64,000 nt of DNA from an uncultured Gammaproteobacteria bacterium (GCA_964486995.1 CAZAOV010000001.1:95168-159167), one strand, 5' to 3'; counted from the stretch's first letter, positions 39,480 to 63,520 are shown. Translations and numbers: made by a program. Notes: generated by a model from the sequence alone, not told the origin.

Positions 39480-41027
39480 CTATTCTACTTCTTCGCTATA
39501 GCTCCAGCCATCGGATAAAATCACGGCTGTCTCGCGGTCCGTAACCTGCCAACCCAACTCATCCAACAAACCTATGATGCCTTCAATCCAGCCGACTGGA
39601 TCGCGGAAAAAAATGAATTTCACCGATTCCAACGCCAAGTCTTTTCTGGTAACCCCGATGCCGGGTGCGGAAATCGCGAAACGATATTCCCCATCCTCGG
39701 TAGTCGCCAGTCTAGAAACTTCAAACGTCGCTTCCGCCACCGTGGTATCAACTGCCATTTTAGGCGACTCATATTCGGTCAAGATGAAATCAATTCCACT
39801 GCTCGCCAAATCATCGGCGTTCATATACCAATCTAGCTGCATGGGCAAAGGATTGAAATAATCATCGGGCGATAAGGCGAACACGCCGTCGGTCTCTAAT
39901 AGCACATCGCGCTTGGGCGAGATTATTTCGAACGGACCGCCCCCCTTATCGAGCCAGGAAAAATATCGCGTATGCGGTTCTCGCAAATCAACTTCCCATT
40001 TATCTACTTTGACCTTCTGCAGTGCTTCCTCATGTGCGGTTCGTGCGACCATAGAACGACCACCAACAAATACAGTCACCGGCAAAGTTTGGTCGCTATA
40101 ACCGACATGGTCGCCCAAATACAGTCGGTTCAAGAACACAAATTTATTCTGCCGCGTAGAAAGCTCGCGAATAAAAACATCTCCCGACGCAGTGAACTCG
40201 ATACGGTACAACCCGCTGATGGGATACGGAAGCGTTAACGACACATTTCGCAAGCCAGAAGATTTTTGATTGTCCTTAGTATTGCCGTCATCTTCAAGCA
40301 CAGTACGCGCCACCGCATCTTGCTCTCCCTCACGATACACCGACAACGTCACCGGATCCGCACCCTCCTGCCGGTTCATGTCCTGAACCTTGAACGAAAA
40401 AGATAGCGGCTCCTGCTCGACGTAGGTCAAGATGCGATGATTGCCGCGCAACGAGACCACCCGTGATTTCGGCTCATCTAGAGTGATATGACTGGACATT
40501 TCATGGGGCCACGAAATCACGGTGCGGTACATCGCCACTCGAGACGAATCAGGTGGCTCACGCAGAAAACTGTCCACGCTGTTGTAAATCTTTTTCCGCT
40601 GCAGCAATGTGACGTCACCGCTAGTGATTCGCGGCCATGACAATGAGTCCACTAGCTGATTTTCCGCTGGTCGCATGTCAAACTGGCCATCTAAACGATT
40701 GGCTAGCGCTCCGATTTCCACCAACGACTGACCGCGATTCCGATAGCGGGCTACCACGGTTACGTTCTCAAACTCTGACGGTGGTCGCACATCAAAATAA
40801 ATCGGATCTCCAACCACTCGGTACGGCGGCCCTGCTTCCAACTCCAGGCGCTGACTTGGCTTGGGTTCAGAAATGTACGGCGAAGGGTCAGTAATGTCGG
40901 TACGTGCTGTGAGATAGCCGTCCGGGGAAACGGCCGCCGAGATAATCCGCATTAAAGCCGCGATGACTACCACCACCGCAATTATGCGAATCGCAATCAT
41001 GAATCTTATATCCGGCTTTTTATTCAT
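39480..41027 (-). CDS. Hypothetical signal-anchored extracytoplasmic protein (~515 aa). Start chosen at 'MNKKPDIRFMIAIRII'; the longer ORF runs to 41081.
   Basis: N-terminal TM anchor followed by a large soluble domain. Sits between the GT-C gene and the small membrane protein. Confidence 0.45.
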   Translation of the reverse strand: MNKKPDIRFMIAIRIIAVVVVIAALMRIISAAVSPDGYLTARTDITDPSPYISEPKPSQRLELEAGPPYRVVGDPIYFDVRPPSEFENVTVVARYRNRGQSLVEIGALANRLDGQFDMRPAENQLVDSLSWPRITSGDVTLLQRKKIYNSVDSFLREPPDSSRVAMYRTVISWPHEMSSHITLDEPKSRVVSLRGNHRILTYVEQEPLSFSFKVQDMNRQEGADPVTLSVYREGEQDAVARTVLEDDGNTKDNQKSSGLRNVSLTLPYPISGLYRIEFTASGDVFIRELSTRQNKFVFLNRLYLGDHVGYSDQTLPVTVFVGGRSMVARTAHEEALQKVKVDKWEVDLREPHTRYFSWLDKGGGPFEIISPKRDVLLETDGVFALSPDDYFNPLPMQLDWYMNADDLASSGIDFILTEYESPKMAVDTTVAEATFEVSRLATTEDGEYRFAISAPGIGVTRKDLALESVKFIFFRDPVGWIEGIIGLLDELGWQVTDRETAVILSDGWSYSEEVE

Positions 41028-42675
41028 CCAACTGTTCAAATTTATACAGAGTTTTGTCGCCGACGTTCGCCATCGGTTCAACAGTCAAACCCAGCGGAGG
41101 CAGCTTGTCGGTCTGCAGCCATTGTACGTCATAATCCGGCAAAGTAAGACCGAAATAATAAGTCGGTCTTATGCGAACCGCTTCGGGTAACAGTTCATAG
41201 GTTTTTGCGGTTCGAAGCGGATACAGCACTGAACGATACGGATACAAATACTTATCGGCCCGATCAACTACTATTAACGAATCGTACTCGGTCAACTCAA
41301 AAACCATCTCGGCTTCCGTTTTGTATTTTAGCAAGTTGTCGCGCACTGCGGACAGCCCCTCCCCCTTTGAGGAAAATATCGTACCTATCGACGCAACAAT
41401 GACGGCGAAGAGCGCAATATATGCAACGCACTTACCGGGCTTACCCCTCTTTAGCAGCGAATCCATCGCCAGCGCGACCGGAAGCGTGGACAACACGAAC
41501 AACGGCAACCAATAACGCAGATATGATGAACCCAGACTAACGGCTGTCGGATCCGGACTATCCTGAATATGCCAGCTACCGTACAGCGGAATCATCCATG
41601 CGGCTATAGCCAGACCGGCGGCCAAAAAAACCTTCGAGTCCGGCAAGAGGCGGCGGCGGCGATAAACACCGACGGCCAAATATATAACCGCCGCTGCAAC
41701 AGCAACCGTCCACCACCACGCTAATCCCATACCATAGACCCAAAAATTGATCGCGGCGGTACGCGGCGCAAAGCCGAGCGGAAAAAACGCCGGCCGCAAC
41801 GGACCCAATATCCGGGCGCCCAAGCCGCCATGCGGGTCACCGCCTACAGTCGCGACCACATCACCATATCCGGTGGCAAATATACTGCCGTACAACGACT
41901 GATTCATTATCAAAAACGGCGCTAAAGTCAGCATGGCAAAAACCATACACAACACCACCCTACCCCAAACCACCCGACGCCAAGCCAGCATCAGAAAGAC
42001 GACTGCTCCGGCTGCCAGCCAATACGCTGCCGCCGGCCGAACGGCCAATGCCAAACCCAAAAATATACCGGCAATAATTCCATCAGCTCGACGCAATACG
42101 CCCATGCCGCCGTACCCGTACAGTTCGGTAAACGCCGCCACCGGAGCGCGCAATAAAAAATACGCCGAAATCAACAACAAGGAAACGAGCAATACGTTCG
42201 GCATCATGGAACGAGAAGTCCAGTACCACCAAAATACGTTAGTCAGTAACAACAGTGCGGCCAACAACGCGGCCCGTAAACCGTAGTATCGCTTGACTAT
42301 CAACGACCACGCCAACACACCGAATAGCGCGAACACCGGAGTAAAAAACGGAAGCGCTCCCGTTCCGAAAACCTTGGCCAACCAGCCGTAGAGCATCGGC
42401 AAGCCCAAAAAACCGCCCGGCACCTGAAGACCGTCCACCACTTTGACGCTGCGCGGATGAATACGGTCGTCCAATCTAACGTTCAAATAATCAATCCGAT
42501 GCAGCTGCCCGTTACGTGCGACCTGTTCGGCAAACACCGCATTAGAATTCTCGTCCGGTGAATTATAAATTCCCGGAACAGACAGCGGCAAAAACGAATA
42601 CAAAAAAAAGAATACGACGCCGATGGCGGCGGCGCTGGCATATTTGAGCAATTGAACTGGTTTTATAGACGTCAT
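41020..42675 (-). CDS. GT-C-fold glycosyltransferase (PMT/ArnT-like, GT39/GT83-type).
   Basis: ~12-TM protein with a 'YNSPDENSN' DE motif in the first extracytoplasmic loop. Confidence 0.6.
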   Translation of the reverse strand: MTSIKPVQLLKYASAAAIGVVFFFLYSFLPLSVPGIYNSPDENSNAVFAEQVARNGQLHRIDYLNVRLDDRIHPRSVKVVDGLQVPGGFLGLPMLYGWLAKVFGTGALPFFTPVFALFGVLAWSLIVKRYYGLRAALLAALLLLTNVFWWYWTSRSMMPNVLLVSLLLISAYFLLRAPVAAFTELYGYGGMGVLRRADGIIAGIFLGLALAVRPAAAYWLAAGAVVFLMLAWRRVVWGRVVLCMVFAMLTLAPFLIMNQSLYGSIFATGYGDVVATVGGDPHGGLGARILGPLRPAFFPLGFAPRTAAINFWVYGMGLAWWWTVAVAAAVIYLAVGVYRRRRLLPDSKVFLAAGLAIAAWMIPLYGSWHIQDSPDPTAVSLGSSYLRYWLPLFVLSTLPVALAMDSLLKRGKPGKCVAYIALFAVIVASIGTIFSSKGEGLSAVRDNLLKYKTEAEMVFELTEYDSLIVVDRADKYLYPYRSVLYPLRTAKTYELLPEAVRIRPTYYFGLTLPDYDVQWLQTDKLPPLGLTVEPMANVGDKTLYKFEQLDE

Positions 42676-42833: not shown

Positions 42834-43424
42834 TCACGTATGCAACCGCGACAGCACACTTACAATAGCCACCGCCAATGCAAGTGCTAGAGTACCCGCC
42901 GAAATCTCAACCAGCAAACTCACGTCCAGCCACAAGGCAAACAACAGCAGTGAGATTCCGCATACCTCAGTCACCATTTTGAGTTTACCCCAAAAATTGG
43001 CCGGCTCAATAATGCCCTTTCGCTGGCGCACCCAAGCGCCGATGATCATAACCGATTCGACTGCGAGTAAAGCCATACCAAGCGCATAGTTGATGTGCTG
43101 CAGAACCACCAAAAACAATACTGCGCCAATCAGCATCTTATCGGCCAAGGGGTCGTATTTAATGCCCCATTCGGTAACCTGTCTGCGCACTCGCGCCATT
43201 GACCCGTCCAGAGCATCGGTCAACGCCGCAAAAATAAATAGTGGCACACCGATGTGATATGCCTGCACATGCAAAAAATACAAGACCACCGGTATCATCA
43301 GCATGCGGAACACAGTAACGTGATTCGGATGAACCGCTTGTGGCATAAACGGATCAATCGCACGCCTATAGACCTTGTCGTGCGGCAGCAGTCGGATATT
43401 TTTGTTCCACTTATCGCCAAACAT
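42834..43424 (-). CDS. CDP-alcohol phosphatidyltransferase.
   Basis: 'DALDGSMARVRRQVTEWGIKYDPLADK' matches D-G-x2-A-R-x8-G-x3-D-x3-D. Confidence 0.8.
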   Translation of the reverse strand: MFGDKWNKNIRLLPHDKVYRRAIDPFMPQAVHPNHVTVFRMLMIPVVLYFLHVQAYHIGVPLFIFAALTDALDGSMARVRRQVTEWGIKYDPLADKMLIGAVLFLVVLQHINYALGMALLAVESVMIIGAWVRQRKGIIEPANFWGKLKMVTEVCGISLLLFALWLDVSLLVEISAGTLALALAVAIVSVLSRLHT

Positions 43425-43449
43425 GGAGATTATTTGCTATCCTATCCTC

Positions 43450-45654
43450 ATGGAGGTTGAATGTCCCAACAACAAGTATATCCTGTTTGCTGCCGTCTTT
43501 ACAGCAGTCGGTACTATAGCGGTATTCCTCCCCGCATCCCTGTGGCTGCGAATTTTTTTGGTTACCCTTTACTTTATTGGCAACGGTTATGTAATCGGTC
43601 GCATTACGCTAGCCGAGGAGCGCTTGGCGATCCGGGCACTGATTGGTTTTTTGATGCACGTGGCGGCTCTAATGATTGTGGGCAGTGCGGTTTATCTATT
43701 CTATCGCTTGAACCTAGCGGCAACAGCGGCGGTAATTATCTTAGCTCCGCTTCTGACCATACTGACCATGCGGCTGAACAATTGGCTAATCAGCCGCAAT
43801 ACAGTCAGCCTGAACGCAATAAAAACGCAACCTGAAACAGAAAAAAATAATTATGAAAATGTTCTAGCGATTATCGGAGTGATTCTGTCTATCGCCTTTT
43901 TTGCTTTTGCTGTGTACGGGCTCGGGCTGCTGGACGGCGCAACGACCGAGCTATCCATCAGATCACCTTGGGACTACGTGCCGCGACTGTTTTTTATTGT
44001 GATATTTGCAGTGGCGGCTGGCACCTTTGCCATGTCCGCCGGACGCTTGGCCGGTGCGGCCACTCTCCTACCGCTTGCCGGACTCTCGGTGCTGACCACC
44101 TCCGTTGCCGCCACGGTGTATGCCATCGGTTTCGGCTTTGATCCGTTCATTCACCAAGCCACGGAAAATCACATTTTCACTTACGGCGAAATGACCCCCA
44201 AACCGCCATATTATTTGGGGCAGTACGCTTTCATTACGGTTCTAGCTCGAATGACGGGCGGTCATGTCAACCTAATAGATACCTGGCTGGTTCCGCTGGC
44301 GTTCGCGTTAGTGATTCCGGTCGCTTATTGGTCATTACGCCGTTCGTTCAATTGGGACAGTCCGCTTGCCGCCGCGGCGTGCATACCCCTACTGGCACTG
44401 CCACTGTCGTCATTTGTAATGACCACACCACAAGGACTAGCAAATACGCTGCTGTTGATTACTACTTTTATGCTGATGGTGAGTGCGACCACGGACCGTA
44501 TTCGCCGTCTAGTTCCGGCGATGCTGGCCGTGGCCACCATAACGATACATCCGTTAGCCGGTGTGCCGCTGTTGCTTTTTGTGGCTATGGTGGCATATCT
44601 ACGCGCCTCGAATCGCCTGCGGAATCACCCGGAGATTCGCTGGGCCTTTTTTATGAAGCTGACTATCGTGACCTGCATCGCCTTGCCGGTAATGTTTATC
44701 GTTAATTCACGACTGTCGGACACTGGCGTGACATTGGACCAGGACACCATCCGAACTCCGGCCGCAATTATGGAACAGCTGAAAAATCCTGAACTGGAAA
44801 CGCGTCTATTTTCAGCGGCTCTGGACTTCGTTTATTTCTGGCGCACCAGTCGCACCGCGATTTGGGCTACGCTTGCCGCTGTCGGCGTGGCACTGCTCTG
44901 GTTTGCTGGTCGTAGAAAAGAAAACGATTTGATGTATGAGGCGGCAATCGCGTTTGGTGCCGGGGCAATCGCCTTCTTTGTGAATTACGTTTTACTAAGA
45001 GCTTGGGTGCGCTTCCCGTTCCTGATTGACTACGAAAGAACCAACTATGCCGATCGAATAGCTGATTTGGCTTTATTTATCGCCGCCCCACTCGCTCTTT
45101 ATGCGGTTGGACGATTCATTCAGCGCATGCGCAAGTACGGCTTCCCCACCCTAACGGCTGCCATGATTTTGTTGGTCGCGGCAATAATCGTGGCCAATAC
45201 TTACATCGCCTATCCACGACGCGACCGGTATGAATCTAGCCGCGGCTGGTCAACAAGCGCGTCCGACGTAAAAGCAGTGCAAACTATCGACAATGACTCA
45301 TCTGATGAGAATTATGTGGTTCTCGCGAATCAATCGGTTTCCGCTGCCGCTATCCGTGAGTTGGGTTTCAAAAAATATTACGAATCGAACGACGAAGAAA
45401 ACCTCGAGCCGGTTTTCTTCTACCCCATCCCAACCGGAGGTCCGCTCTATGAAATATTCCTGGACGCCAACGAACAGAGCGGAGCGACGGAGGCGATTCA
45501 GGAAGCCATGAATCTAGTGGGCGTTGATGTCGCATATTACGTAGTGAATCACTACTGGTGGCAGGCGCAACAAATCGTTATCAAGGCAAAAAAGGAAGCG
45601 GATTCGTGGTGGGAAATTGATGACAAGGTCTGGGTATTTAAATACTCCAAATAG
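43450..45654 (+). CDS. Large (~735 aa) polytopic membrane protein with >12 TM and a C-terminal soluble domain. Putative glycan polymerase/transferase. Start uncertain (ORF opens at 43375 but overlaps the divergent gene).
   Basis: Hydrophobicity pattern only, with no diagnostic motif. Embedded in the glycan locus. Confidence 0.4.
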   Translation: MEVECPNNKYILFAAVFTAVGTIAVFLPASLWLRIFLVTLYFIGNGYVIGRITLAEERLAIRALIGFLMHVAALMIVGSAVYLFYRLNLAATAAVIILAPLLTILTMRLNNWLISRNTVSLNAIKTQPETEKNNYENVLAIIGVILSIAFFAFAVYGLGLLDGATTELSIRSPWDYVPRLFFIVIFAVAAGTFAMSAGRLAGAATLLPLAGLSVLTTSVAATVYAIGFGFDPFIHQATENHIFTYGEMTPKPPYYLGQYAFITVLARMTGGHVNLIDTWLVPLAFALVIPVAYWSLRRSFNWDSPLAAAACIPLLALPLSSFVMTTPQGLANTLLLITTFMLMVSATTDRIRRLVPAMLAVATITIHPLAGVPLLLFVAMVAYLRASNRLRNHPEIRWAFFMKLTIVTCIALPVMFIVNSRLSDTGVTLDQDTIRTPAAIMEQLKNPELETRLFSAALDFVYFWRTSRTAIWATLAAVGVALLWFAGRRKENDLMYEAAIAFGAGAIAFFVNYVLLRAWVRFPFLIDYERTNYADRIADLALFIAAPLALYAVGRFIQRMRKYGFPTLTAAMILLVAAIIVANTYIAYPRRDRYESSRGWSTSASDVKAVQTIDNDSSDENYVVLANQSVSAAAIRELGFKKYYESNDEENLEPVFFYPIPTGGPLYEIFLDANEQSGATEAIQEAMNLVGVDVAYYVVNHYWWQAQQIVIKAKKEADSWWEIDDKVWVFKYSK

Positions 45655-52030: not shown

Positions 52031-54115
52031 TTAATGTATGAATCGAGCTCTGACTCCGCCACGATGATGCATTCCGTAGGCTTGAAAAGTAATCTCGGGC
52101 CGAGCAGATGAGGCGGTCACGGTTACCGCAGGTGCCTTGCCTTCTAGTGATCCCCAAACCGTGCGGTGAGGCGCGGTTGTGTTGGGAGTTTCTAGGCCAA
52201 CTCCGCTGGCGGTCATCTCCGGTACCGCACCACCATCGCCTAAATAATCTCCCTGTCCGTTGTAGACCGCGGTCGTCGGTTCTCCTTTCGGGTCATGACC
52301 CTGCACAACCAGCTCAACCGTGCCGTCACCGTCCAAGTCCTCCATCATCACCATCATTCCACGATCATAGTCGATACCGAAGGGCATAATAGTAAATAGG
52401 TGTGTGCCGTGTTTATCGAAGATACGCACTTCGGGTTTACCGCGTCCCGGTGATACGGCAATCTCTGTTTCGCCATCGTTATTGAAATCACCGGCAGCAA
52501 CGTCTGTCCCCCCGCGATAGCCTTCCTCAAAGGCGAAAAATCCGCCGAGCACCTGACCTCGCTTATCAAACACCCGAATATGCGGACCGCCACCTGGACC
52601 GGCTCCGGTTATAATTTCATCAATGCCATCGTCATCCAAATCGCTGACATCAATCTCGACCCCACCCCGGAAATCGCTATTATAGGCGAAAAATCCGCCG
52701 ATCGGTCGTGTATTTATGTCAAAAATTCTAACGTGCGGACCGCCGCCGGACAGTGCACCAGCTATAATGCTGTCACGATGAGTGCCGTCAAAGTTACCGA
52801 TAGCAAGCGAAACACCGCCCATAAACGATTCGGGGAACGCATTAAAGCTCCGAACAAACAGGCCGTATTCGGTAAAAATTCTTACTTCAGGAGCATGACC
52901 GGCGCCGGGACTAGTAACTACATAGCGACCGTAAGCTTCTTCTGGTGCCAACATTGCCGTAGCTTTCACCTGCTCTATGGGTTGCAGCTGCTGATCTTGC
53001 AGGACCTTTTTCACTGCCGCCGCGGCATCAATCCGACCACGTCCTAGACGACCAAAATAATCTTCGTTCAAAATGTCAATATTTTCCGAAGTCTCGGTTA
53101 AGATGTTCATCACCCTCTTAGGGGTTAATGCGCTATCGAGCGAAAACATCAACGACACCAGACCTGAAACCAGAGGAGCGGCCACGGAAGTCCCGCTGTA
53201 ATAACCACCATAGGCTTCAACAAAATCCATGCTCCCAGGAACAACGACCTGAGTGGAAATTATTCTTTCCCCCGGAGCGCTGATATCAATACAGGCGGCT
53301 CCGTAGTTAGAGAACTCGGCTTTCAAATCGTCTGCGTCGGTCGCCGCCACCCCGTAGACGTAATTTACGTTTGAATCGCGATCAAAACAAACCGGATAAA
53401 GCGGGTTGCGATCAAGATTATCCGCCTCGCCGTTATCCGGCGCATTGCCGGCTGCCGCCACCACAAATACGCCGCTGTCATAGGCACGACGAAGCGCATG
53501 GTTCAGCCGCGAGCTATAAGTCGAACCAACAAAGCTAAGATTAATGACTTTGGCTCCGTTATTGACTGCATAATCAACCGCACGCGCCACATCGTTTGGG
53601 TCTCCTACCCCATTTGAATCCAGCGCGCGTATCGGCATTATTGGCACTTGCCAGGCGACGCCCACGATACCAATCCGGTTATCGCCCTTAGCTGACGCCA
53701 GGCCAGCGCTAATTGTGCCGTGGTTCGCACCTAACAGTGAATAGTCACCGTAAGTATGCGGACTTGGGTCATTATCAGAATCAACGAAATCCCAGCCGAC
53801 GATGTCATCGACATATCCGTTGCCGTCGTTATCAACCCCGTCACCGGCGACCTCGTAGACGTTGCGCCAAATATTATCTTTTAAATCGGGATGATCCAAA
53901 TCAATGCCGCTGTCTATAATCGCAATCGGCACATTTTCCATGCCCAAACTGTACTGCCAAGCTTCCGGTGCTCCGATATGCGACAGATACCACTGCTGTT
54001 CAAAAAACTGGTCATCCGGAACACGCGCCGATGCAGCGCCCGGAAACCATAAATAGCTGGCCGTAAACAGCACCAGCATGATTAACATTGCTCGATTCAC
54101 TGGAGTTTGTTTCAT
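52031..54115 (-). CDS. Secreted subtilisin-like (S8) serine protease with a C-terminal FG-GAP/VCBS-like repeat domain. The signal peptide starts at 'MKQTPVNRAMLIMLVL'; the longer ORF runs to 54151.
   Basis: Asp 'AIIDSGID', His 'HGT', Ser 'GTSVAAP', then repeated 'D.D.DG..E' beta-propeller blades. Confidence 0.85.
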   Translation of the reverse strand: MKQTPVNRAMLIMLVLFTASYLWFPGAASARVPDDQFFEQQWYLSHIGAPEAWQYSLGMENVPIAIIDSGIDLDHPDLKDNIWRNVYEVAGDGVDNDGNGYVDDIVGWDFVDSDNDPSPHTYGDYSLLGANHGTISAGLASAKGDNRIGIVGVAWQVPIMPIRALDSNGVGDPNDVARAVDYAVNNGAKVINLSFVGSTYSSRLNHALRRAYDSGVFVVAAAGNAPDNGEADNLDRNPLYPVCFDRDSNVNYVYGVAATDADDLKAEFSNYGAACIDISAPGERIISTQVVVPGSMDFVEAYGGYYSGTSVAAPLVSGLVSLMFSLDSALTPKRVMNILTETSENIDILNEDYFGRLGRGRIDAAAAVKKVLQDQQLQPIEQVKATAMLAPEEAYGRYVVTSPGAGHAPEVRIFTEYGLFVRSFNAFPESFMGGVSLAIGNFDGTHRDSIIAGALSGGGPHVRIFDINTRPIGGFFAYNSDFRGGVEIDVSDLDDDGIDEIITGAGPGGGPHIRVFDKRGQVLGGFFAFEEGYRGGTDVAAGDFNNDGETEIAVSPGRGKPEVRIFDKHGTHLFTIMPFGIDYDRGMMVMMEDLDGDGTVELVVQGHDPKGEPTTAVYNGQGDYLGDGGAVPEMTASGVGLETPNTTAPHRTVWGSLEGKAPAVTVTASSARPEITFQAYGMHHRGGVRARFIH

Positions 54116-54207
54116 GGATGTAAATTCATTGCCGAGATTATACTGCCGCATTCAGTAACGAGGGTATTGTACAGAGAGAATAAAATAATGAAAAGTGCTT
54201 TTGCGAA

Positions 54208-54523: not shown

Positions 54524-54657
54524 TTGCTCCGTTTAAACATGCTTGAGGCGACCACCGCACCAAAAAAACTTTCTGAGCACAAAAAATTAAAAACCCTCCC
54601 CCGCGCGGAAACGAGGAAGGGCGGCAAGAGGGCGATTAGACTTCAGTGTAAAACACG

Positions 54658-57531
54658 CTAAGAACCCTTGACATTCAGGGAGCTCTTCACATTGACCACG
54701 CCATCAGCAGCGGTTCCGGGCAGCGGTTCATATGTGCCGGACGGTATATCAGTCCAGAGAAAGTCACCGTTTGTCATCAACTCCACTTTCAGGGAGTAAT
54801 CTCTGTCTTGCGCGAATGCGGTGGTATAGAGCTCAAGCTGATAATCAAATGAAGCACCAGCCGGAATGATAATTTCTGAACCTTCGTCAATGTCATATTC
54901 GATGATTCCGTAATCGCTCGATTGTGAGTCGTAACCGGACGGCGTGGAGTCTCGGCTGCTACCGGATGCTATATAGTATCTGATGCTGACACTGCTGTCC
55001 TCACCGAACGTATCCTTGGTGCCGTTAGGATAGACGCGTTTTAGATTTACCACGCCGTCATCGTCACGCGCATCGCCGTTTCGATCCGCCCAAAGTTCCA
55101 GCGCATCATTATCGGAACCTTCCTTTCCGGCGTCTGATGGGTCTAGCATGAACGACAGTTTCCGCACCCGCACCATACCAGTTTCATCCGCCGCCAAACT
55201 GAATCTCAGCACCTGTATCTCGGAGCCGCGATAGACATCACCCGATGGGGAATACTCGGACTTGCTGGCGTACAATTTGGAATACCTGACGATGATTGCA
55301 CTAGAGCGATTCTCCTTTAGCTCAAACCCGGGCAAATTCAAATCCGTAGCCTCGAAATCATCGAGCGTAGAAACAGACGAGAACACCAACGGACCCATGA
55401 TGTTTAGATCAACACCCAACTCCTCACCATATACAACGCCGCCAATCTTGGGATAGATATCACCGTATAGACGCACCGAAGTTTCTGTATCCCGGGGCAG
55501 CCAGGCCGCCAAGCCGGAAAAGGTCGCCAGACCGCCGAGCATTTCCCCGTCCACAGACACAACCTCTCCAGCCTGATTATCATATTCAAGTCGCAAGTTA
55601 CCCAAAGAATCAGCAGTTGAACTCGACTGCCTGAAGGTGATTATTTTGAGCAGGTAATCATCAAACTGCGGCTCGAATTTAATGTCGCCGAGATGCACCT
55701 CTTGCCCGGCAATTTGGTTGCCGCTATCTCCATACCAACCTAAATCCATCTCGCCTTTTTCTCGAATGGTGAGACGGCCGATGGCGTTCACACCATGATT
55801 GGGATTCTTGCCGCTAGCCGGTACTTGATCGCCCGTCTCATCAGTAACTATGACGTTTAGTGCGGCATCTTCAATATCGAAAGCAACCATATTTGGACTG
55901 CCTTCTAGATTAAGGCTGTGGCTGATATCGCCGTGCACGATGACTTGCTGTGAACCACCGGCCGGAATATACAAATTCATTCCGGTGAACGTGACCACGC
56001 CGTTTACGTCTATAGTTTCCGGACCGGCGATCGTGCTTCCATCAGGATTACGCAGAGTCACCTGATCTGACACGAAAGTTTCGCGCACCAGAGTTTCGGT
56101 GCCGTTGTCCGCGTCGCTACCGGGCAGAAAGCCGCCGGAATCGCCCTCATCGATATAACCCTGCATCGTCATCGATTGAACGACGTTTGGCGCCGATGTC
56201 GTGGCATGAAGGGTGAAGTCGGTTATCGGAACATTGAGCGCACCCTTGACGTAAGTCTGGTTGCTGTATGCGGCTGTGGCATCCACCTCTAGGCTGTCGG
56301 CCAGCGTGGTAAGCGCTGGGCCAATTATGTCGGAGGCGGGCAGGAACGGTGTTAGCTGTCCCTGATCATCGATGAATTGAATGCCGGAATTGAGTAGCTT
56401 GACCTGATATCCTTCCGAATCCGGCAGCAGATGGTTCAGTCGCGCCTTTAGAAACAGCACCACATCTTCGCCGGCCGGAATCAACAAATTACCAGTATAA
56501 TTAAGTGTCTGCACTTGGTCAAGATTGACATCAAGCGCGATTTCTTGACGCCCCAGAACCTCGAAACCTGAACCATTAACGAAAGTCAGATGCGAAAAAT
56601 TCTTCTGAGCGTTATTGCCGTAGACTAATCCACCTGCATCATCGTCAACTTCACCCTCGTCGCGGGAGTCGTCTGTGGTCGCCTGAAGCACCGCGGTAAG
56701 ACGAGTCAGTCGAACATCTCGCCCGGCAGTTATATGCAGCTCCAGCAAAGTGGCGTTACTGGCCACGGCGATGAACGTTGACGGCGGCGTCTGAACTCGC
56801 AGCTGCGGCGGCACAGCAACCGAAACCACATTGCGCTCAGCCGTATCGGTTATCGCAGCTTCGGGTGCGGTAATTGATTCGGCTTCCGGATAGGTAGATA
56901 AATCCAGTTCGGTTGTCACCAGATGCTGTTCCTGAATTCTCAATTGATCCAATAGGTCTTCGGTGGAAATTCTGCGTTTGGTGCCATTGTCTATGTAAAA
57001 AAATGCGTCGTCGCTAGAGCGCCGCACTACGGTGCCAGTAGGCCAAACCGGCGCCGCTAACGGCGAACCGATCGAATAATTTATGAAATAAGTATCCGGA
57101 ACGTCATCAATAATTTGATTCCAGCTCTCGCCGTATAAATCATTGGCAATTGATTCACTGCCGATTGCGCGCAGCACTCCACCGGGCTCCACTGCATACA
57201 CGGTCGGATCAGAAGTTATTTTTATTAGGCGAGTGCCGGGGCGGTATGTGATATTACCGCCGATCATGTGTGCCGCCATTTCGGCTTCGCTCACCTCGCG
57301 CACGCCAGAAAAATCTTCGTACCATGTGTGATAAACCTTTGAGGACGGAAACACGTAACGCTTGCCGTCATCGGCAACATAATAGACTGCGGCATCGTGC
57401 TGAGTGTCGGGATTATTGTCGCTGACCAGCTTGATTAAGTCACCCGGAACCGTGGCGGCAAAAACGTCATCCGGCGAAGACACGAAGCACAACGCCAAGG
57501 CGATTGCGATAAAAATTAAGTATTTTTTCAT
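54658..57531 (-). CDS. Large secreted protein (~957 aa from 'MKKYLIFIAIALAL'; the ORF extends to 57582). The N-terminal ~125-aa conserved domain is shared with the two neighbouring paralogues, followed by a long beta-rich region.
   Basis: Signal peptide plus the domain 'DDGKRYVFP..KVYHTWY.DFSGV..V...E.A...IGGN.TYRPG.R..KI.SDP.VYAV..GG.LR...' shared with 57619-58830 and 59996-63520. Confidence 0.7.
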   Translation of the reverse strand: MKKYLIFIAIALALCFVSSPDDVFAATVPGDLIKLVSDNNPDTQHDAAVYYVADDGKRYVFPSSKVYHTWYEDFSGVREVSEAEMAAHMIGGNITYRPGTRLIKITSDPTVYAVEPGGVLRAIGSESIANDLYGESWNQIIDDVPDTYFINYSIGSPLAAPVWPTGTVVRRSSDDAFFYIDNGTKRRISTEDLLDQLRIQEQHLVTTELDLSTYPEAESITAPEAAITDTAERNVVSVAVPPQLRVQTPPSTFIAVASNATLLELHITAGRDVRLTRLTAVLQATTDDSRDEGEVDDDAGGLVYGNNAQKNFSHLTFVNGSGFEVLGRQEIALDVNLDQVQTLNYTGNLLIPAGEDVVLFLKARLNHLLPDSEGYQVKLLNSGIQFIDDQGQLTPFLPASDIIGPALTTLADSLEVDATAAYSNQTYVKGALNVPITDFTLHATTSAPNVVQSMTMQGYIDEGDSGGFLPGSDADNGTETLVRETFVSDQVTLRNPDGSTIAGPETIDVNGVVTFTGMNLYIPAGGSQQVIVHGDISHSLNLEGSPNMVAFDIEDAALNVIVTDETGDQVPASGKNPNHGVNAIGRLTIREKGEMDLGWYGDSGNQIAGQEVHLGDIKFEPQFDDYLLKIITFRQSSSTADSLGNLRLEYDNQAGEVVSVDGEMLGGLATFSGLAAWLPRDTETSVRLYGDIYPKIGGVVYGEELGVDLNIMGPLVFSSVSTLDDFEATDLNLPGFELKENRSSAIIVRYSKLYASKSEYSPSGDVYRGSEIQVLRFSLAADETGMVRVRKLSFMLDPSDAGKEGSDNDALELWADRNGDARDDDGVVNLKRVYPNGTKDTFGEDSSVSIRYYIASGSSRDSTPSGYDSQSSDYGIIEYDIDEGSEIIIPAGASFDYQLELYTTAFAQDRDYSLKVELMTNGDFLWTDIPSGTYEPLPGTAADGVVNVKSSLNVKGS

Positions 57532-57618
57532 ACAGCTGGTTTTTAATTGCCAAAGACAACGGGAGCGTCTGCCTGCCGGCATATCTGTCTTTACAAAATA
57601 TTAGAGGAATGCTCTGAC

Positions 57619-58830
57619 CTACCCCACAGGCTTCCCTACCGTGTAATTCACGAAGAACGGGTCTGGGATGTCGTCAATCATCTGATTCCAATTTTCACCA
57701 TACAGCCGCTCTGCCGTATCCTCGTCCGGCACCCATCGCAGTACGCCGTCCGCATCTACCGCAAACACTTCTGGACTGGACTCGATTTTCACCATTCTGA
57801 CACCCGGACGATAAGTGACGTTGCCGCCAATGGGAATCTGCGCCATTAGCTCCTTGCTGATTTCAATTACGCCAGCGAAAGAATCGTACCAAGTGTCGTG
57901 CGTTTTTCGGTTTGGAAAAACATATCGCTTGCCGTCAGTTCCGCAATAGTACAGCGTGGAGCTATTCGGTGTCTTGATTCGGCTATTGGGATGGCAGGTG
58001 GTCGTACCCACGGGCAATTCAGCGGCCAATAGACCCTTATCTACCCCAATGGTTTCCGCTGCTGCGATAATTTCTGCTGGCTCATAGATATCAACTGGCT
58101 TCGGTTCCGGCGGCGGCTCCAAGCCCCGTATCGTAAAATCACCGGTCACGGCCATAGCCACAATTCGACCGGCGTTAATGCCCTCGATCTTTAACCGCAC
58201 GACATCCGTGGTGATTACTTCCGGCACGGCCCAGTTGTAGAAACCGGTATTAAACAACTCTCCGGCAAACGGCTCGGCAAAAGTGGTACCACCATCGACC
58301 GACAGGCGCAGTTGAAGATAAGATGGCGCACGACCGATGGTGCTCCACAAAATCTGATGCGTGTCTCCCATCGACAGTTCGGTATCGGCGCTCGGTGAAG
58401 AGATGACGATTTGCGAAGTGTCCTCGGGCTCAGCCTCGTCGGTTTCGCAAAACAGCGAAGAGACGACGATATTTACGGTCTTCGGACCGGTGATAATGAG
58501 TTGGTTTTCCCGACTAGGTGTGACATTGCATACCTGCAGGCTGGCGTTATTCTCCAAGCGGCGTGGATTCGGGCCAAGGGACCGGAATTCAAACGCCTCA
58601 TTCTCGGGAACGGTCACGAATATCGAGTCGCCTTCATGATAGATATCCTCATAAACCGAACCGGCTTTGATCACCAAGGAAAAGCTATCCGTGGCATAAG
58701 AGGTATCCTCGGTGGCGGTTGTATAAACCGGAACCGATTCGATGTATAGCGTGGGCACGGCTTCCTCGGCTAGGGCAGTCATCGGAGCCAGCAAACCAGC
58801 CAGTGTCAGGAGAGTGATTAGTTTTTTCAT
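57619..58830 (-). CDS. Secreted 403-aa paralogue in which the conserved ~125-aa domain is C-terminal, preceded by Ig-like/beta-rich modules.
   Basis: Signal peptide 'MKKLITLLTLAGLLAPMTALA' and a C-terminal 'TDGKRYVFPNRKTHDTWYDSFAGV...IGGNVTYRPGVRMVKIESSPEVFAV'. Confidence 0.7.
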   Translation of the reverse strand: MKKLITLLTLAGLLAPMTALAEEAVPTLYIESVPVYTTATEDTSYATDSFSLVIKAGSVYEDIYHEGDSIFVTVPENEAFEFRSLGPNPRRLENNASLQVCNVTPSRENQLIITGPKTVNIVVSSLFCETDEAEPEDTSQIVISSPSADTELSMGDTHQILWSTIGRAPSYLQLRLSVDGGTTFAEPFAGELFNTGFYNWAVPEVITTDVVRLKIEGINAGRIVAMAVTGDFTIRGLEPPPEPKPVDIYEPAEIIAAAETIGVDKGLLAAELPVGTTTCHPNSRIKTPNSSTLYYCGTDGKRYVFPNRKTHDTWYDSFAGVIEISKELMAQIPIGGNVTYRPGVRMVKIESSPEVFAVDADGVLRWVPDEDTAERLYGENWNQMIDDIPDPFFVNYTVGKPVG

Positions 58831-58921
58831 ATATTAGATAGTAGGTGTGTTGTGATTTGAGGTAATTGTACACAATTTTTGTAGAAGCATATAAGCGTGT
58901 AAACGACTTTTTCATTATTTA

Positions 58922-58947
58922 TGTGTAGAAGTATAGAAGTATAGTAG
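58922..58947. repeat. Left 8-bp tandem-repeat array (TGTGTAGAA GTATAGAA GTATAGTA) flanking the 4HB gene. Inverted partner at 59383-59406.
   Basis: Read directly. Same repeat family as 51486-51600. Confidence 0.6.
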
Positions 58948-59010
58948 GTTGTTTTGGCTAAATATTTCCGTTTGACAACATCGGGACACACTGATAAGCA
59001 ATGTCTTAAT

Positions 59011-59376
59011 ATGAATGTCAGAACTCCATTTACTGAGCTACGAATATGGAAACAAGCGCACAAACTTGCGTTAGAAATTTATAGTATTTCAAACAAATTT
59101 CCGGTCGAGGAAAAATTTGGACTGCAATCCCAAATTAGACGCTCTGTTTCCTCTGTTTCGGCCAATATTGCTGAAGCATCCGGCAGAGAAACCAGGAAAG
59201 ATATTGCTAGATTTCTAACAATATCGAGAGGGTCCGTTCAGGAAACCATCAGCCACTGCTTACTTGCTAAAGACTTGGGAATTATTGATGAAAGCGAGGC
59301 TAATCTGATTATCAATAAATACAATATCCTGGCTGCAGGAATACACAAGTATAAATATGTGGTAATGAATAGGTAG
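59011..59376 (+). CDS. Four-helix-bundle protein of the '23S rRNA intervening-sequence protein' / DGR-Avd family (PF05635/TIGR02436-like). Start at the internal 'MNVRTPFTELRIW'; the ORF opens at 58954.
   Basis: 'W..AH.LALEIY.I...FP.EEKFGL.SQIRRS..SV.ANIAEA.GR....D..RFL.IS.GS..E' matches the family. This is the only plus-strand gene in a minus-strand neighbourhood. Confidence 0.75.
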   Translation: MNVRTPFTELRIWKQAHKLALEIYSISNKFPVEEKFGLQSQIRRSVSSVSANIAEASGRETRKDIARFLTISRGSVQETISHCLLAKDLGIIDESEANLIINKYNILAAGIHKYKYVVMNR

Positions 59377-59382
59377 CCACCC

Positions 59383-59406
59383 TCCTACACTTCTATACTT
59401 CTATAC
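59383..59406. repeat. Right inverted 8-bp tandem-repeat array (CTACACTT CTATACTT CTATACCC).
   Basis: Inverted relative to 58922-58947. Confidence 0.6.
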
Positions 59407-59410
59407 CCCT

Positions 59411-59442
59411 AAACAAAAAACCACCCGTAGGGTGGTTTTTTG
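59411..59442 (+). terminator. Rho-independent terminator CCACCC-gta-GGGTGG-TTTTTT after the 4HB gene.
   Basis: Hairpin with a 6-nt T-run and an A-run 5'. Confidence 0.75.
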
Positions 59443-59995
59443 TCGTCTCGCGAATGAGCGGGACGTTATTGAGAATTCTTCGTCAGATCGAATCGGCTCG
59501 GAATAATGTCGGACGGTCTCGGTTGCGGCGGCTGGCATTGGCAGCCGTGCCACAAAGTGCAGTTCGCACCGACCGACCCTCCCTAAGAGCGCATGGGAAG
59601 AACTATTGGATTCACGCGAAGGCGACATTCCTGTCTGGTGGCACATATATATAAACGGCCTACACATGACGGATGGCGCTGGTTCGCCGTAAACTAACGG
59701 ACTTCCGGAGCGGGGTGGGATGGCTGATGGTAACTAGCTGAACCCGGCGCACAGAGCCTGACGCTCGCCGGACACAACTTCGACTATCTTCAATTATTAG
59801 GAACGCGAATCGACATGGTTTCGAACTTTCGCCGGAGAAGGTGCGCCTTTTTCGCGCGACCCGTCCGCTATCCCCTCGGCAGTCGAGGTGGAGCCGAACT
59901 ATTTTGGCTCGACCCCACTCGACTTACCCCAGGTGAGGGCGGCTTTTAGTTTCCAAGGGAGCCGCTAACCCAGCAAAGTTTCAATTCAGAGTGTC

Positions 59996-62900
59996 CTAGT
60001 TGGACATGGTCTGAGAGTCGGTCGGGAGGACGTTGACGTAGAAGCCATTGGCCCAGTCGGCAGAACCATCATCCAGGTCATCGTGGGCCAACAGTGAAAT
60101 GTCGGACCAGACGAAGCGGGAACCGGTGTCGTCGACCAGCAACGAGTAACCGTTAGCAACGCCGTCGTAATCGAGGTCACCAGTGTCAGCGGCATCGTCG
60201 CCGAGCAGTTTGGTGCTCAGGGAATCGGTGCCTGTGCTGGCATTAGCGACATCCAGTATCAGGTCGTAGGTGACCTGCGAACCGGCGGAAATGACCTCTT
60301 CCTGGTCAAAGACCACAGCGAAGGTACATTCCTCGCCGTCCTCGCAGTTTGCGTCAGTATCAGTGCTGTACACAGTCACGTTACCATCGATGTAGTCGCC
60401 ACCGACGCGGCGGACGGAGGACTTGGTACCGACCGGGTCGACATTGCCGTTGCTCTGGTTCTGGACCTCGAATACGAGACCCTTCAGCGCGACTGCACCG
60501 GCCGCATCGGCGGATACGGTGAAGCGGGAAGCGGTCACGTCACCGGCGGTCAACAGAGAGCCCGGCAGGCTGACGAGAGCCACGCTCGGCTTGCTCTTGC
60601 GACTGACCTTGACGTAGCCGTCAATCTGGTTACTAGGCAGGCCAGCGCCGTTGTTCAGGTTGTCACCATCCAGAACGGTGTTGGAGCCGGAGCCTGTGCC
60701 GCGGGCCTCAAAGTTGGTCTCGACCATGGTCACGGTAGCTTCCATTCCGGTGTCAGCACCAGAGGCGCCAACGCTGTTCAGGTTACCCTTGACGGTCATG
60801 GTCTTGTGGCTGTCCTTCGGCACGACGAAGGTCATGCTGGAGAAGTCAGCGACACCGCCAGCAGTGACGCCCACCGGACCGCCGACTAGCGTCGAGCCGT
60901 CCCATAGGGACAGGCTGCCTACGGCTTCACCGTTGACCACAGTAAAGACGATGTCCTCAACGTTGATCTCTTCGTTCTCGGCGGTGAACTTGTACTTGGC
61001 CAAGACGGCGTTAGAGGTGCCACCGACGACGATACCAGCCTCGGTATCAGCGTCTTCCGGAGCGCGGACAACGTTCAGGTTGCCTGCCAGAGCGACGTTG
61101 TGGTTTGGACCATCAGCCGGGAGACCGACAATCTGTGTGGCCGCAAGCGGCTCACCTTCGGCATCTTCGACGTCACCGTCGAGGTCGCCACCATCAATGT
61201 CGAATTCGAGGTTGGCAACGAGACCGCCGAGCGAGCTGCGCAGGTCAACCTTCAGCGTTACGCCGACGGTCTGACCGGCCGGAACCAAGAGGTTCAGATT
61301 GTCAAAGACAAACTGCTCATTGGTGTTCGGACTCTCGAGTGAACCGAGCTGGGTCGAGCCGTTCCACAAGCTGCCGCTCATAACGACAGTGTCGAGAACT
61401 ACTGATGAATCATCACCAGTGATCGTGATGGTATCGACATACAGGTCGGACGCGTCGTTGGCGGTCAGACCGAAGCCGAATACCTCAACACCGGTACTAC
61501 CTTGGATGAAGGTCTGGGCGACCGGCGTGGAACCTGTAGCAACAGTCAGCTCCGGAGCCACTACTCCATGGTCGTTACCCGCCAGGCGAGTGGCCGGAAC
61601 AAAGTCGAGATCCTCGTCTAGGTCTTCACCGTTGTCGAGATTCCTGACGTCGCCGGTGTTGAATAGGTCATCTTCAGCATCATCACCCCAAGTCACCATA
61701 ACGGTGTCACTGACGATACCAGCGGCATCCTCGATGTCAGCACGTACTGACAAGGTGCGGCTGGAACCAGCACCGATGTTATAGGACTCAGTGAAGTCAA
61801 AGTCCTGCTCGACGACACCGTTGTAGGTGTTTGCCGGACCAGCGATGGTGACACCAGTAGCAGTGTCAACAATCTTCAGGTCAGTGATCACATCATTGAC
61901 ATTAGAACCACCCACTATGGTCACGGTCAGCCCAGTGTTGCGAACCTCAAGGTTTGCCTGGGCGGACAGGGTGATGTTGAGAAGCTCAACGTCACTGGCA
62001 CCAGTAGCAATGTCGCGCGAAGCCGGGCCGTTCAGAACGGCGGTCAGCTTACCAGCCTCGATACCGACGTCACCTGGAGTCCAGCTATCAAGTGTGGCCA
62101 TGCCATAGCCATAGCTCTGACCGACACACAGCAAGTCTGCAACCTGGTCGAGGTCTAATCTGACGACATCGTTAGTATCAACAGCCGCGCTTACGTCAGC
62201 ATAGAGGTCGAAAGTTCGGGGTGAACCATCTTCCAACGAGAACGGAGCGGGCAAAATAAATACCGCCAAATCATCATTCAGACCAGCGACAGTAGCCAGA
62301 GTATCACCACTCTGCTTCAGAACGAAGTTGCTCAGGTCACCAGCGTTAACGCCGCCGACTTCGACAGCGATGCGGGTAAAGTGAGCGTCCTCGTTAGTAG
62401 CCTCAAGCTGGAACTCGCCAATCTTGGCGCCCATCTCACCGGCCTTGATGTCAGCAACTGCGCCTCCGTCTGTGATTTCACACTGACCGGCATTAACACC
62501 AGCAAAGGTGAAGGACGGACCAGTCACCGGAGTGCCGGCGGCGCTCACAGTACCGGAAGTCAGACCAACGATTTGGAACGCGTTAACGTTGCCAGCGTCG
62601 GCTAAATCACCATCAACATCGAGTGGGTTGTCAACATCAACAGCGAGCCAGAAGGACTCGGTAGCGCCCGGGCCAACAGAGACACCCAAGTTTCCGAAGG
62701 TGGTCTCCTGGCTGGAACCACTCAGGGTGCGGCCATTGCTCAGGCGATCGTTGCCATGATAGACGTACACGGCATCGAAGTCATCGACTTCACCCGGACC
62801 AGTGCGGCGCACGGTCAGAGAGTCGAGCGGAAGGGCGGCGGAGCCACCATTCATGACGTCGAATTTCAGTACGTTGACGCCGGTCGCACCCTTCGGAAGG

Positions 62901-63520
62901 GTACCGCCAGACGGCATCATGGAAGACGGACCGACGGTCAAGCTACCGGAACCGGAGCTAGCCGAGAGGCCCTTATCCTCGTTAATAGTGGCCGAGGCGG
63001 CCATAACAGCGGCTGGATCATAGTCGCCGCAGTCAGCGATATCCGCACCGATGGTGTAGTTCACAAAGAACGCATCCGGTACGTCATCGATCTTGGTGTT
63101 CCAGTCCGCACCATAAAGGCAAGTAGCGGTGGCTTCGTCGGCAACCCAGCGGAGGGTGCCATCCATGCCGACTGCATAGACCTTAGGATCGGTCTGGATC
63201 TTAACCATTCTGACACCAGGACGATAGGTGACGTTGCCGCCAATCGGCATCGCCGCCAGCTCGGCGTCAGTGATTGTCTGGACGGCGGAAAAATCCGCGT
63301 ACCAGGTATTGTAAGTTGGTTGATTCGGAAAGACGTAGCGCTTATCGTCCGCGCCGACGTAGTAAACCGCCGGCAGGGATCCGCGCACGAGGTCACCGGA
63401 AGCCGCAGCGTTCGCCGTAAGTGGCGTAACGAGCGCAGCCAAACCGATGGACCAAGCGATCGTTGCTGCAACAACAGCAACGGTGAACGCTCTCCTGCTC
63501 ATTCGTAAAACGTTATGCAT
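59996..63520 (-). CDS. Giant (1174 aa) secreted surface protein. After the signal peptide it carries the conserved ~125-aa domain, then >1000 aa of Thr/Ser/Gly/Asp/Val-rich, Cys-poor beta-rich sequence.
   Basis: Signal peptide 'MSRRAFTVAVVAATIAWSIGLAALVTPLTANA'. Domain 'ADDKRYVFPNQPTYNTWYADFSAV...IGGNVTYRPGVRMVKIQTDPKVYAV'. 50-80-nt stretches share about 85% nucleotide identity with the paralogues. Confidence 0.75.
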   Translation of the reverse strand: MHNVLRMSRRAFTVAVVAATIAWSIGLAALVTPLTANAAASGDLVRGSLPAVYYVGADDKRYVFPNQPTYNTWYADFSAVQTITDAELAAMPIGGNVTYRPGVRMVKIQTDPKVYAVGMDGTLRWVADEATATCLYGADWNTKIDDVPDAFFVNYTIGADIADCGDYDPAAVMAASATINEDKGLSASSGSGSLTVGPSSMMPSGGTLPKGATGVNVLKFDVMNGGSAALPLDSLTVRRTGPGEVDDFDAVYVYHGNDRLSNGRTLSGSSQETTFGNLGVSVGPGATESFWLAVDVDNPLDVDGDLADAGNVNAFQIVGLTSGTVSAAGTPVTGPSFTFAGVNAGQCEITDGGAVADIKAGEMGAKIGEFQLEATNEDAHFTRIAVEVGGVNAGDLSNFVLKQSGDTLATVAGLNDDLAVFILPAPFSLEDGSPRTFDLYADVSAAVDTNDVVRLDLDQVADLLCVGQSYGYGMATLDSWTPGDVGIEAGKLTAVLNGPASRDIATGASDVELLNITLSAQANLEVRNTGLTVTIVGGSNVNDVITDLKIVDTATGVTIAGPANTYNGVVEQDFDFTESYNIGAGSSRTLSVRADIEDAAGIVSDTVMVTWGDDAEDDLFNTGDVRNLDNGEDLDEDLDFVPATRLAGNDHGVVAPELTVATGSTPVAQTFIQGSTGVEVFGFGLTANDASDLYVDTITITGDDSSVVLDTVVMSGSLWNGSTQLGSLESPNTNEQFVFDNLNLLVPAGQTVGVTLKVDLRSSLGGLVANLEFDIDGGDLDGDVEDAEGEPLAATQIVGLPADGPNHNVALAGNLNVVRAPEDADTEAGIVVGGTSNAVLAKYKFTAENEEINVEDIVFTVVNGEAVGSLSLWDGSTLVGGPVGVTAGGVADFSSMTFVVPKDSHKTMTVKGNLNSVGASGADTGMEATVTMVETNFEARGTGSGSNTVLDGDNLNNGAGLPSNQIDGYVKVSRKSKPSVALVSLPGSLLTAGDVTASRFTVSADAAGAVALKGLVFEVQNQSNGNVDPVGTKSSVRRVGGDYIDGNVTVYSTDTDANCEDGEECTFAVVFDQEEVISAGSQVTYDLILDVANASTGTDSLSTKLLGDDAADTGDLDYDGVANGYSLLVDDTGSRFVWSDISLLAHDDLDDGSADWANGFYVNVLPTDSQTMSN

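Follow-up and report, generated by a model that had tools for sequence, protein, structure and literature searches.

Modular cell-surface targeting domains are a known kind of system. SLH, CWB2, LysM, SH3b and GW modules target proteins non-covalently to the cell wall of monoderm bacteria. They sit at one end of a protein, occur in several copies per genome and are joined to passengers of many unrelated kinds, among them M23 peptidases and candidate surface-layer (S-layer) proteins. SH3b and LysM modules are also known in fusions with wall-active enzymes, comparable to the M23 and S11 partners reported below. Here we describe what would, by analogy, be a new member of this group. It occurs once in each of three adjacent genes on a 64-kb stretch of DNA (CAZAOV010000001.1:95168-159167, from here on called the window), which comes from an uncultured, ultra-small bacterium of the Candidate Phyla Radiation (CPR), or Patescibacteria. 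The products are 1174, 403 and 974 amino acids (aa) long and have the working names C1174, B403 and A974. The module shares the traits listed for SLH and the other modules. It differs from them in fold and in being acidic, and no sequence or profile match to them was found.

In structure, another system is closest. EccB, from the mycobacterial ESX type VII secretion system (PF05108), has four repeats called R1 to R4, and these are the only solved structures that match the module (3X3N, 4KK7, 5CYU and 7NPS). The periplasmic repeats of EccB are 50-57 aa long, consist of a four-stranded sheet and two helices, are packed in pairs, and have been likened to the wall-binding protein PlyCB (PMC4769845). 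Going by its model, the module would resemble EccB in being built from ~50-aa units in pairs, and both would be extracytoplasmic and associated with the envelope. The module has two units where EccB has four, and it lacks the central domain and the N-terminal membrane anchor. Its proteins carry a cleavable signal peptide, as read from the sequence, and a helical tail. PlyCB itself, a subunit of the streptococcal phage lysin PlyC (PDB 4F87), does not appear in the first 50 Foldseek hits for the module, so that the resemblance is second-hand, via EccB.

The module and its family

An original prediction, made from this DNA alone, held that three adjacent secreted proteins share a domain of ~125 aa with a linker next to it. 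The genes are indeed there: three minus-strand open reading frames (ORFs), each with a signal-peptide-like start and one copy of the domain. The shared unit is real, but a division into a core of ~112 aa and a tail of ~24 aa describes it better. Within the window, tblastn finds the cores at E values of 1e-43 to 1e-46, and searches of the 64 kb with each copy found no further ones. Pairwise, the cores are 54-61% identical as protein, and a three-way alignment has 51 invariant columns. The core sequence is not low-complexity, and the similarity is not confined to sequence of that kind.

The AlphaFold2 model of aa 38-185 of C1174, based on a 74-sequence alignment, has a predicted local distance difference test score (pLDDT) of 96.9 and a predicted template modelling score (pTM) of 0.88. 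In this model the same order of secondary structure elements occurs twice in the core. The two halves also align in register (hhalign: 49 columns, 29% identity, E 0.007). This means that the core is a tandem pair of ~50-aa units. The loop that joins them, GGNVTYRPG, is nearly invariant.

The tail has the motif D-Y-x-P...A..I-x-x-D-K-G-L and is modelled as two short helices (H132-138 and H142-146 of the 148-aa query, pLDDT 96-98). A census of the family covered 379 fetched proteins containing 389 modules, and 312 of these proteins have a signal-peptide-like N-terminus. Modules lie at most 90 aa from the N-terminus in 298 cases and at most 45 aa from the C-terminus in 88. The tail follows the core in 228 of the 298 N-terminal modules, and C-terminal relatives end exactly in ...DKGL. 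Going by the model, the earlier 'linker' is this tail, and as such part of the module.

When the model is compared to the PDB using Foldseek, the ten best matches are all EccB1 or EccB5 (best E 4.4e-3, probability up to 0.98). The likeness is at the level of the repeat unit, because global TM-scores to the EccB structures are 0.30-0.35. Sequence searches do not recover it: PF05108 has no hit at E<=1 in the three proteins or in any of 74 relatives, and PDB sequence profiles found no EccB chain. Small actinophage proteins of 102-115 aa, taken from predicted viral structures, superpose on the module with TM-scores on the target of 0.70-0.72 and root-mean-square deviations of 2.5-3.8 Å. These are A0A1I9SA71 from Rhodococcus phage Weasels2 and A0A345MGB2 from Streptomyces phage LukeCage. 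Since both have the same predicted fold, the module would seem to have stand-alone relatives in phages.

The domain had been predicted to be unrecognised, and this held up in the sequence libraries. No Pfam or NCBIfam model matches the module in the three proteins. Pfam also placed nothing over it in 74 relatives or in a set of 88. In the scans of the three proteins and the 74 relatives, SLH (PF00395) has no match at E<=1. The SH3b, LysM, PG_binding, CW_binding and GW families of Pfam gave no significant match; there were stray Choline_bind matches (E 0.1-0.17) in one or two of the 74. No PDB sequence profile recognises the module. Two kinds of PDB match were rejected: those to antibody heavy-chain variable (VH) domains, which are caused by an 'AVYYC'-like motif, and those to cupredoxins and nitrite reductases, which are caused by fused partner domains in the query alignment. 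Literature searches returned no description of the module.

Among the curated libraries, only PHROGs has a relative at sequence level: phrog_9616, whose phage members are of unknown function. This family matches the N-terminal region of A974, where aa 19-116 align with positions 10-101 of the 118 in the profile (E 8.7e-9). The modules of B403 and C1174 stay below the PHROG threshold, with no hit at E<=1. The likeness to phrog_9616 and the actinophage proteins thus consists of the A974 match and the superposition of predicted structures, and the difference is that the phage proteins stand alone.

With the C1174 module as query, a word-indexed search gave 176 hits, with E values down to 4e-59, from metagenomic Patescibacteria, Uhrbacteria and Veblenbacteria among them. 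In an exhaustive search with a profile, 5,523 representatives reached E<=1e-3 and 2,889 of these reached E<=1e-30, where each representative stands for a cluster at 50% identity. Almost all are from Patescibacteria. In a scan of species-representative genomes (one genome per species, eight cores as query) there were at least 580 confirmed stretches, and several genomes had two or three loci. Genomes named among the matches listed are Uhrbacteria, Falkowbacteria, Paceibacter, Parcubacteria, Minisyncoccota and 'Patescibacteria group'. Judged by these searches, the family is large, unannotated and lineage-specific.

Some labels point elsewhere. Dozens of third-party metagenome-assembled genomes titled 'uncultured Gammaproteobacteria bacterium' bear the module (loci L006-L083), including the genome of locus L001, which is discussed below. 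A few short module-bearing contigs are labelled Acutalibacteraceae, Vicinamibacterales or archaeon. The Gammaproteobacteria and other off-lineage labels are probably placeholder taxonomy or binning errors.

Orthologous groups and two layouts

One account of the three genes is that they are paralogues of recent divergence, that gene conversion passes sequence between them, and that recombination shuffled domain and linker. This is what the original prediction proposed, and gene order in other Patescibacteria speaks to it directly. Locus L001 starts with an extracytoplasmic function (ECF) sigma factor and a DUF5667 gene. Next come genes for proteins of 1233 aa (module), a Y1 transposase, 1240 aa (module), 401 aa (the B403 orthologue), 564 aa, 393 aa (module), TerC, 391 aa (module), 956 aa (module without tail) and an S8/FG-GAP protease. 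Loci L002 and L003 have the sigma factor, DUF5667, 1159 aa (module), 399 aa (the B403 orthologue), 494 aa and 441 aa (module). The order in the window matches: C1174, B403, A974 and S8/FG-GAP, then GtrA, an epimerase and glycosyltransferases. It is kept in all three loci, which have additional module-bearing genes. A974 is a full-length orthologue of the L001 protein whose called gene gives 956 aa (43% identity over 930 aa).

So each gene has its own full-length orthologues elsewhere, in the same order, and the idea of paralogues shuffling domains does not survive this. The cores tell the same story. In an identity matrix, the C1174 core is 74-77% identical to those of its orthologues versus 55% to the other two copies in the window. 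For B403 these numbers are 61-70% and 53-55%, and for A974 62% and 53-55%. A neighbour-joining tree places each window copy with its orthologues and not with its neighbours, which means that concerted evolution among the three genes is excluded at this resolution. From sequence comparison, the genes look to be separate orthologous groups, vertically inherited in a conserved envelope gene cluster.

Gene conversion was thought to be enabled by retained identity at the DNA level. When aligned by codon, the core DNAs are 56%, 58% and 64% identical, and third positions, at 30-44%, are essentially saturated. At the 67 residues that are identical between the B403 and C1174 cores, the same codon is used 30 times, where 27.6 is expected from the codon usage of the window (P=0.31). 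The DNA string quoted in the original prediction does exist, at 57791-57834 and 63204-63247, but the identity is not domain-wide. It is limited to a patch of 51 nt in B403 and C1174 (Table 1), where 46 of 51 nt are identical and no exact match is longer than 17 nt; A974 has a different sequence at this place. Identical codons number 12 out of 17 in this patch, versus 6.4 expected (post-hoc P~0.004). This does favour conversion, but outside this one 17-codon run synonymous sites are saturated. The patch is at most a very short local anomaly, and not nucleotide identity retained across the domain.

Duplication or conversion can occur in this family, since L001 contains a pair of ~1240-aa genes with identical modules beside a transposase. 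Specifically, L001:1520-5221 and L001:6093-9815 are C1174-type genes of ~1235 aa with 100% identical cores, and they flank a Y1_Tnp gene (IS200/IS605-type) at L001:5417-5971. Unlike the window, this pair looks like a recent duplication or conversion.

The position of the domain does differ between the proteins in the way predicted: A974 and C1174 have the core behind the signal peptide, whereas B403 ends with it. The motif 'AA..TI..DKGL' is also on opposite sides: in C1174 (aa 162-185) it follows the core, and in B403 (aa 246-267) it precedes it. The proposed cause, recombination between paralogues, fares less well. In B403 and 26 orthologues or paralogues (391-447 aa, down to 34% and up to 60% identity), the tail motif precedes the core and the stop comes right after the core, in 27 out of 27. 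The orthologue alignment conserves this tail as 'YDYxPA..AATIxxDKGL', and C279 and C296 of the connector are invariant in the 27 sequences. In the AlphaFold2 model of B403, the upstream motif forms the same two helices (pLDDT 84-88).

Nor is the layout local to this group. Among the 88 C-terminal modules, the tail is before the core in 40, after it in 15 and undetected in 33. Fusions to M23 peptidase and ice-binding-like domains share the layout of B403, that is passenger-tail-Cys...Cys-core. GH114, S11 and YHYH fusions are arranged as signal peptide-core-tail-passenger, and one S8 fusion as passenger-core-tail. Tail-before-core is best described, from these alignments, as an old, family-wide variant that resembles a circular permutation. 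Going by the confidence of the models, the surface of the core on which the tail docks would be the same in the two topologies. With the same arrangement present in unrelated M23 fusions, and cores that group by orthologue and not by genome, conversion and shuffling among the three genes is largely refuted and we regard it as very improbable.

What the module may do

The passengers of the module are diverse. The enzymes among them are M23, S8, S11/beta-lactamase, C25 and trypsin peptidases, GH114 and GH10. Other passengers are cupredoxin/plastocyanin, YHYH, ice-binding-like, Big_7, Big_5, fn3 and invasin domains. In the window, the neighbours scanned include no type VII secretion genes; glycosyltransferases, GtrA, an epimerase and the S8/FG-GAP protease are found there instead.

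We propose that the module is a portable retention or targeting domain of exported proteins. Proteins exported by Sec would be held non-covalently at the cell envelope via the module, on peptidoglycan or an attached glycopolymer, and the variable passenger (an enzyme, a cupredoxin or an array of immunoglobulin (Ig)-like domains) would face outward. The module comes in two topologies: core-tail, found mostly at the N-terminus, and the permutation-like tail-Cys-loop-core, found at the C-terminus. In the window, the trio consists of a repeat protein of ~1200 aa, a protein of ~400 aa and one of ~960 aa, followed by the S8/FG-GAP protease and genes for glycan synthesis.

Judging from architecture and context, we give non-covalent retention on the producer's own envelope a probability of roughly 0.5. 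Peptidoglycan or a glycopolymer as the ligand is speculative. Envelope retention is favoured because the module is terminal, has diverse passengers that include wall-active enzymes, and sits in envelope gene clusters. It is also favoured because there are several copies per genome, because EccB repeats are the only structural relatives, and because of lysozyme-like neighbours in phages. The anchoring or binding role of the original prediction is likewise the best reading of the family-wide architecture, in which the proteins are secreted and of a surface type.

The phage neighbours come from two IMG/VR viral contigs in which a module-bearing secreted protein is encoded beside a lysozyme-like/SLT gene (L085:3333-3902 and 3899-4789; L084:584-2089 and 4047-4973). 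In L085 the module gene overlaps the lysozyme-like gene, next to the small subunit of a terminase. As an aside, the layout in both contigs recalls two-component lysins such as PlyCA/PlyCB.

Some observations weigh against envelope retention. This phage evidence amounts to two contigs, and the Pfam score of the lysozyme-like match in L085 falls short of the curated threshold. An acidic pI (4.3-4.6) sets the modules apart from many that bind anionic wall polymers. And the link of EccB itself to peptidoglycan is a hint only (PMC4769845).

Acidic modules sit more easily with docking or oligomerisation between proteins. The module would then bind a common protein scaffold, such as an S-layer lattice, a pilus or a membrane receptor, or assemble with itself, and wall glycans would not be involved. 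EccB repeats do pack on each other, EccB is part of a multiprotein machine, and the working form of PlyCB is an octameric ring (PMC4769845). The conserved cluster has several genes for module proteins next to one another, and 10 of the 379 proteins have two copies of the module. However, no conserved module-free partner gene was identified next to all clusters. The fusions to M23, S11 and GH114, and the phage lysozyme-like adjacency, are also a better match for a wall ligand. On balance, docking is unlikely.

The lytic passengers (M23, GH114, proteases) could also be aimed at another cell. In that case the module targets the envelope of a host or prey, and the enzymes and adhesins of an episymbiont bind the wall of its partner, as lysins and bacteriocins do. 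Actinobacteria, the source of EccB, are known hosts of some CPR lineages, and the module has its fold or sequence in common with phrog_9616 and the small proteins of actinophages. The cupredoxin carriers, the S11 carboxypeptidases and the ~1200-aa repeat proteins in a housekeeping-like cluster are a better fit for the own surface though. In addition, the core is highly conserved, down to its joining loop, across lineages that presumably have different hosts. We find such targeting distinctly improbable.

Retention on the own envelope can be extended to C1174 itself. Its body (aa 190-1174) has self-alignment off-diagonals at ~150, 300, 465 and 620 aa (E 1e-47 to 1e-17, hhalign on the family alignment), and did not match Pfam or PDB sequence profiles. 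The 38 relatives that align with the protein are ~1135-1330 aa long and share 26-66% identity with it. Traits of C1174 that are compatible with an S-layer protein are the signal peptide, the terminal module, a pI of 4.05, the ~6 tandem repeats and the conserved cluster. All three proteins are acidic, with a pI of 4.0-4.5.

A wider combination can be considered, in three parts. Patescibacteria would use the module as their general means of surface display, in the role that SLH, CWB2 or LysM have elsewhere, and it would bind their peptidoglycan or a wall glycopolymer. The C1174 family, of ~1200 aa and downstream of ECF sigma/DUF5667 in other genomes, would be the so far unidentified S-layer or main coat protein. 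And the module would have two circularly permuted topologies, set by the end of the passenger to which it is joined. We offer this combination as a tentative one that is, taken as a whole, rather unlikely.

The genes of the window and their wider meaning

The features of the three genes and their surroundings are listed in Table 1.

Table 1. Module genes, their parts and nearby features, by position in the window.
Feature	Position	Strand	Description
C1174	59996-63520	-	Secreted, 1174 aa: signal peptide, core, tail, ~6 tandem ~155-aa repeats
C1174 signal peptide	63407-63520	-	aa 1-38, ...TPLTANA/AAS
C1174 core	63038-63373	-	aa 50-161, two ~50-aa EccB-type units in tandem (model) with the GGNVTYRPG loop between; tblastn
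C1174 tail	62966-63037	-	aa 162-185, DCGDYDPAAVMAASATINEDKGL; two short helices (model); formerly 'linker'
C1174 body	59999-62953	-	~6 tandem copies of a ~150-160-aa unit; hhalign
51-nt patch in C1174	63197-63247	-	~90% identical to the B403 patch; encodes PIGGNVTYRPGVRMVKI
B403	57619-58830	-	Secreted, 403 aa: signal peptide, two beta-sandwich domains, proline linker, tail, core, stop
B403 tail motif ahead of core	58030-58095	-	aa 246-267, VDIYEPAEIIAAAETIGVDKGL; helices 251-257 and 261-265
B403 core	57625-57960	-	aa 291-402; Cys279 and Cys296 flank the connector to the tail
51-nt patch in B403	57784-57834	-	~90% identical to the C1174 patch; encodes the invariant PIGGNVTYRPGVRMVKI
A974	54658-57582	-	Secreted; core without canonical tail, large acidic body; probably 957 aa from Met18 at 57531
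A974 core	57058-57393	-	aa 64-175; tblastn
Terminator-like hairpin	54593-54622	-	12-bp stem and T-tract, right after the A974 stop; consensus scan
S8 subtilase with FG-GAP repeats	52031-54151	-	Secreted; Pfam E 1e-41
23S_rRNA_IVP four-helix-bundle gene	58954-59376	+	Between B403 and C1174; Pfam E 7e-34

The signal peptide of C1174 was read from the sequence, and has a basic n-region, a hydrophobic core and an AxA site. C1174 is present exactly in the protein collection as P0379, and B403 is identical to P0266. The 974-aa form of A974 is absent from this collection. From its first ATG, A974 would have an odd leader of 17 residues, MPAGRRSRCLWQLKTSC, while from Met18 it has a canonical signal peptide, MKKYLIFIAIALALCFVSSPDDVFA/A (MKKYLIF...VFA/A). 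The true start is probably Met18, because the two other proteins are in the collection exactly and this form is not.

The match of A974 to the module hidden Markov model (HMM) spans positions 11-125 only, which means that it has no tail. Aa ~185-235 of A974 are conserved in its orthologue, but single-unit HMMs did not detect a third repeat unit there. The body of A974 is weakly similar to that of C1174 (E 1e-6 to 5e-11), and is by this similarity a putative distant relative of it. The AlphaFold2 model of B403 has a pLDDT of 86.9, and Foldseek found only generic matches of the Ig, fn3 or carbohydrate-binding module (CBM) kind for its N-terminal part.

B403 and A974 are probably co-transcribed, because just 36 nt separate the B403 stop from the start of the A974 ORF and because of the hairpin after A974, which suggests where the transcript would end. 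There is at least a fourth module gene in this genome, since P0290 (412 aa, 38% identical to B403, with the permuted layout) is probably on the same source contig, outside the window.

The gap between C1174- and B403-type genes varies. It holds the 23S_rRNA_IVP gene in the window and no called gene in L002 and L003, and in L001 the transposase is between the two C1174-type genes. The site around the C1174-type gene may be an insertion hot spot. C1174 also has a G+C content of 57.6% (65% at third codon positions), versus 51.5% for A974, 52.9% for B403 and 51.7% for the S8 gene. This may come from a composition rich in Ala, Gly, Val and Asp, from codon bias linked to expression or from a different history.

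The S8 subtilase with FG-GAP repeats adjoins the module cluster in the window and in L001 (from 21199). The association may be functional, for example in the processing of surface proteins. The 480 bp upstream of C1174 (63521-64000) have stops in all three minus-strand frames and a weak promoter-like site at 63891-63862. The window ends before the position where the ECF sigma/DUF5667 pair is found upstream of C1174 orthologues elsewhere. Upstream of the glycosyltransferase block, the ORFs at 41020-42675 (minus strand, 551 aa) and 43375-45654 (plus strand, 759 aa) have no Pfam match at E<=1e-3. Scans of the window for tRNAs and Rfam families had no hits.

How the cell envelope of CPR bacteria is formed and structured is said to 'remain unclear' (PMC5220378). 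One recognisable module on thousands of exported proteins would give a sequence handle on the surface proteome of Patescibacteria, usable from metagenomes. The module is a candidate for how proteins are retained on CPR cells, and the ~1200-aa family would narrow down which proteins may form the surface coat. The module would also enlarge, by a big family so far without annotation, the fold of the EccB repeats, whose function in type VII secretion is itself unresolved. Finally, the two topologies, in an arrangement that resembles a permutation, make a tidy case for the study of domain evolution.

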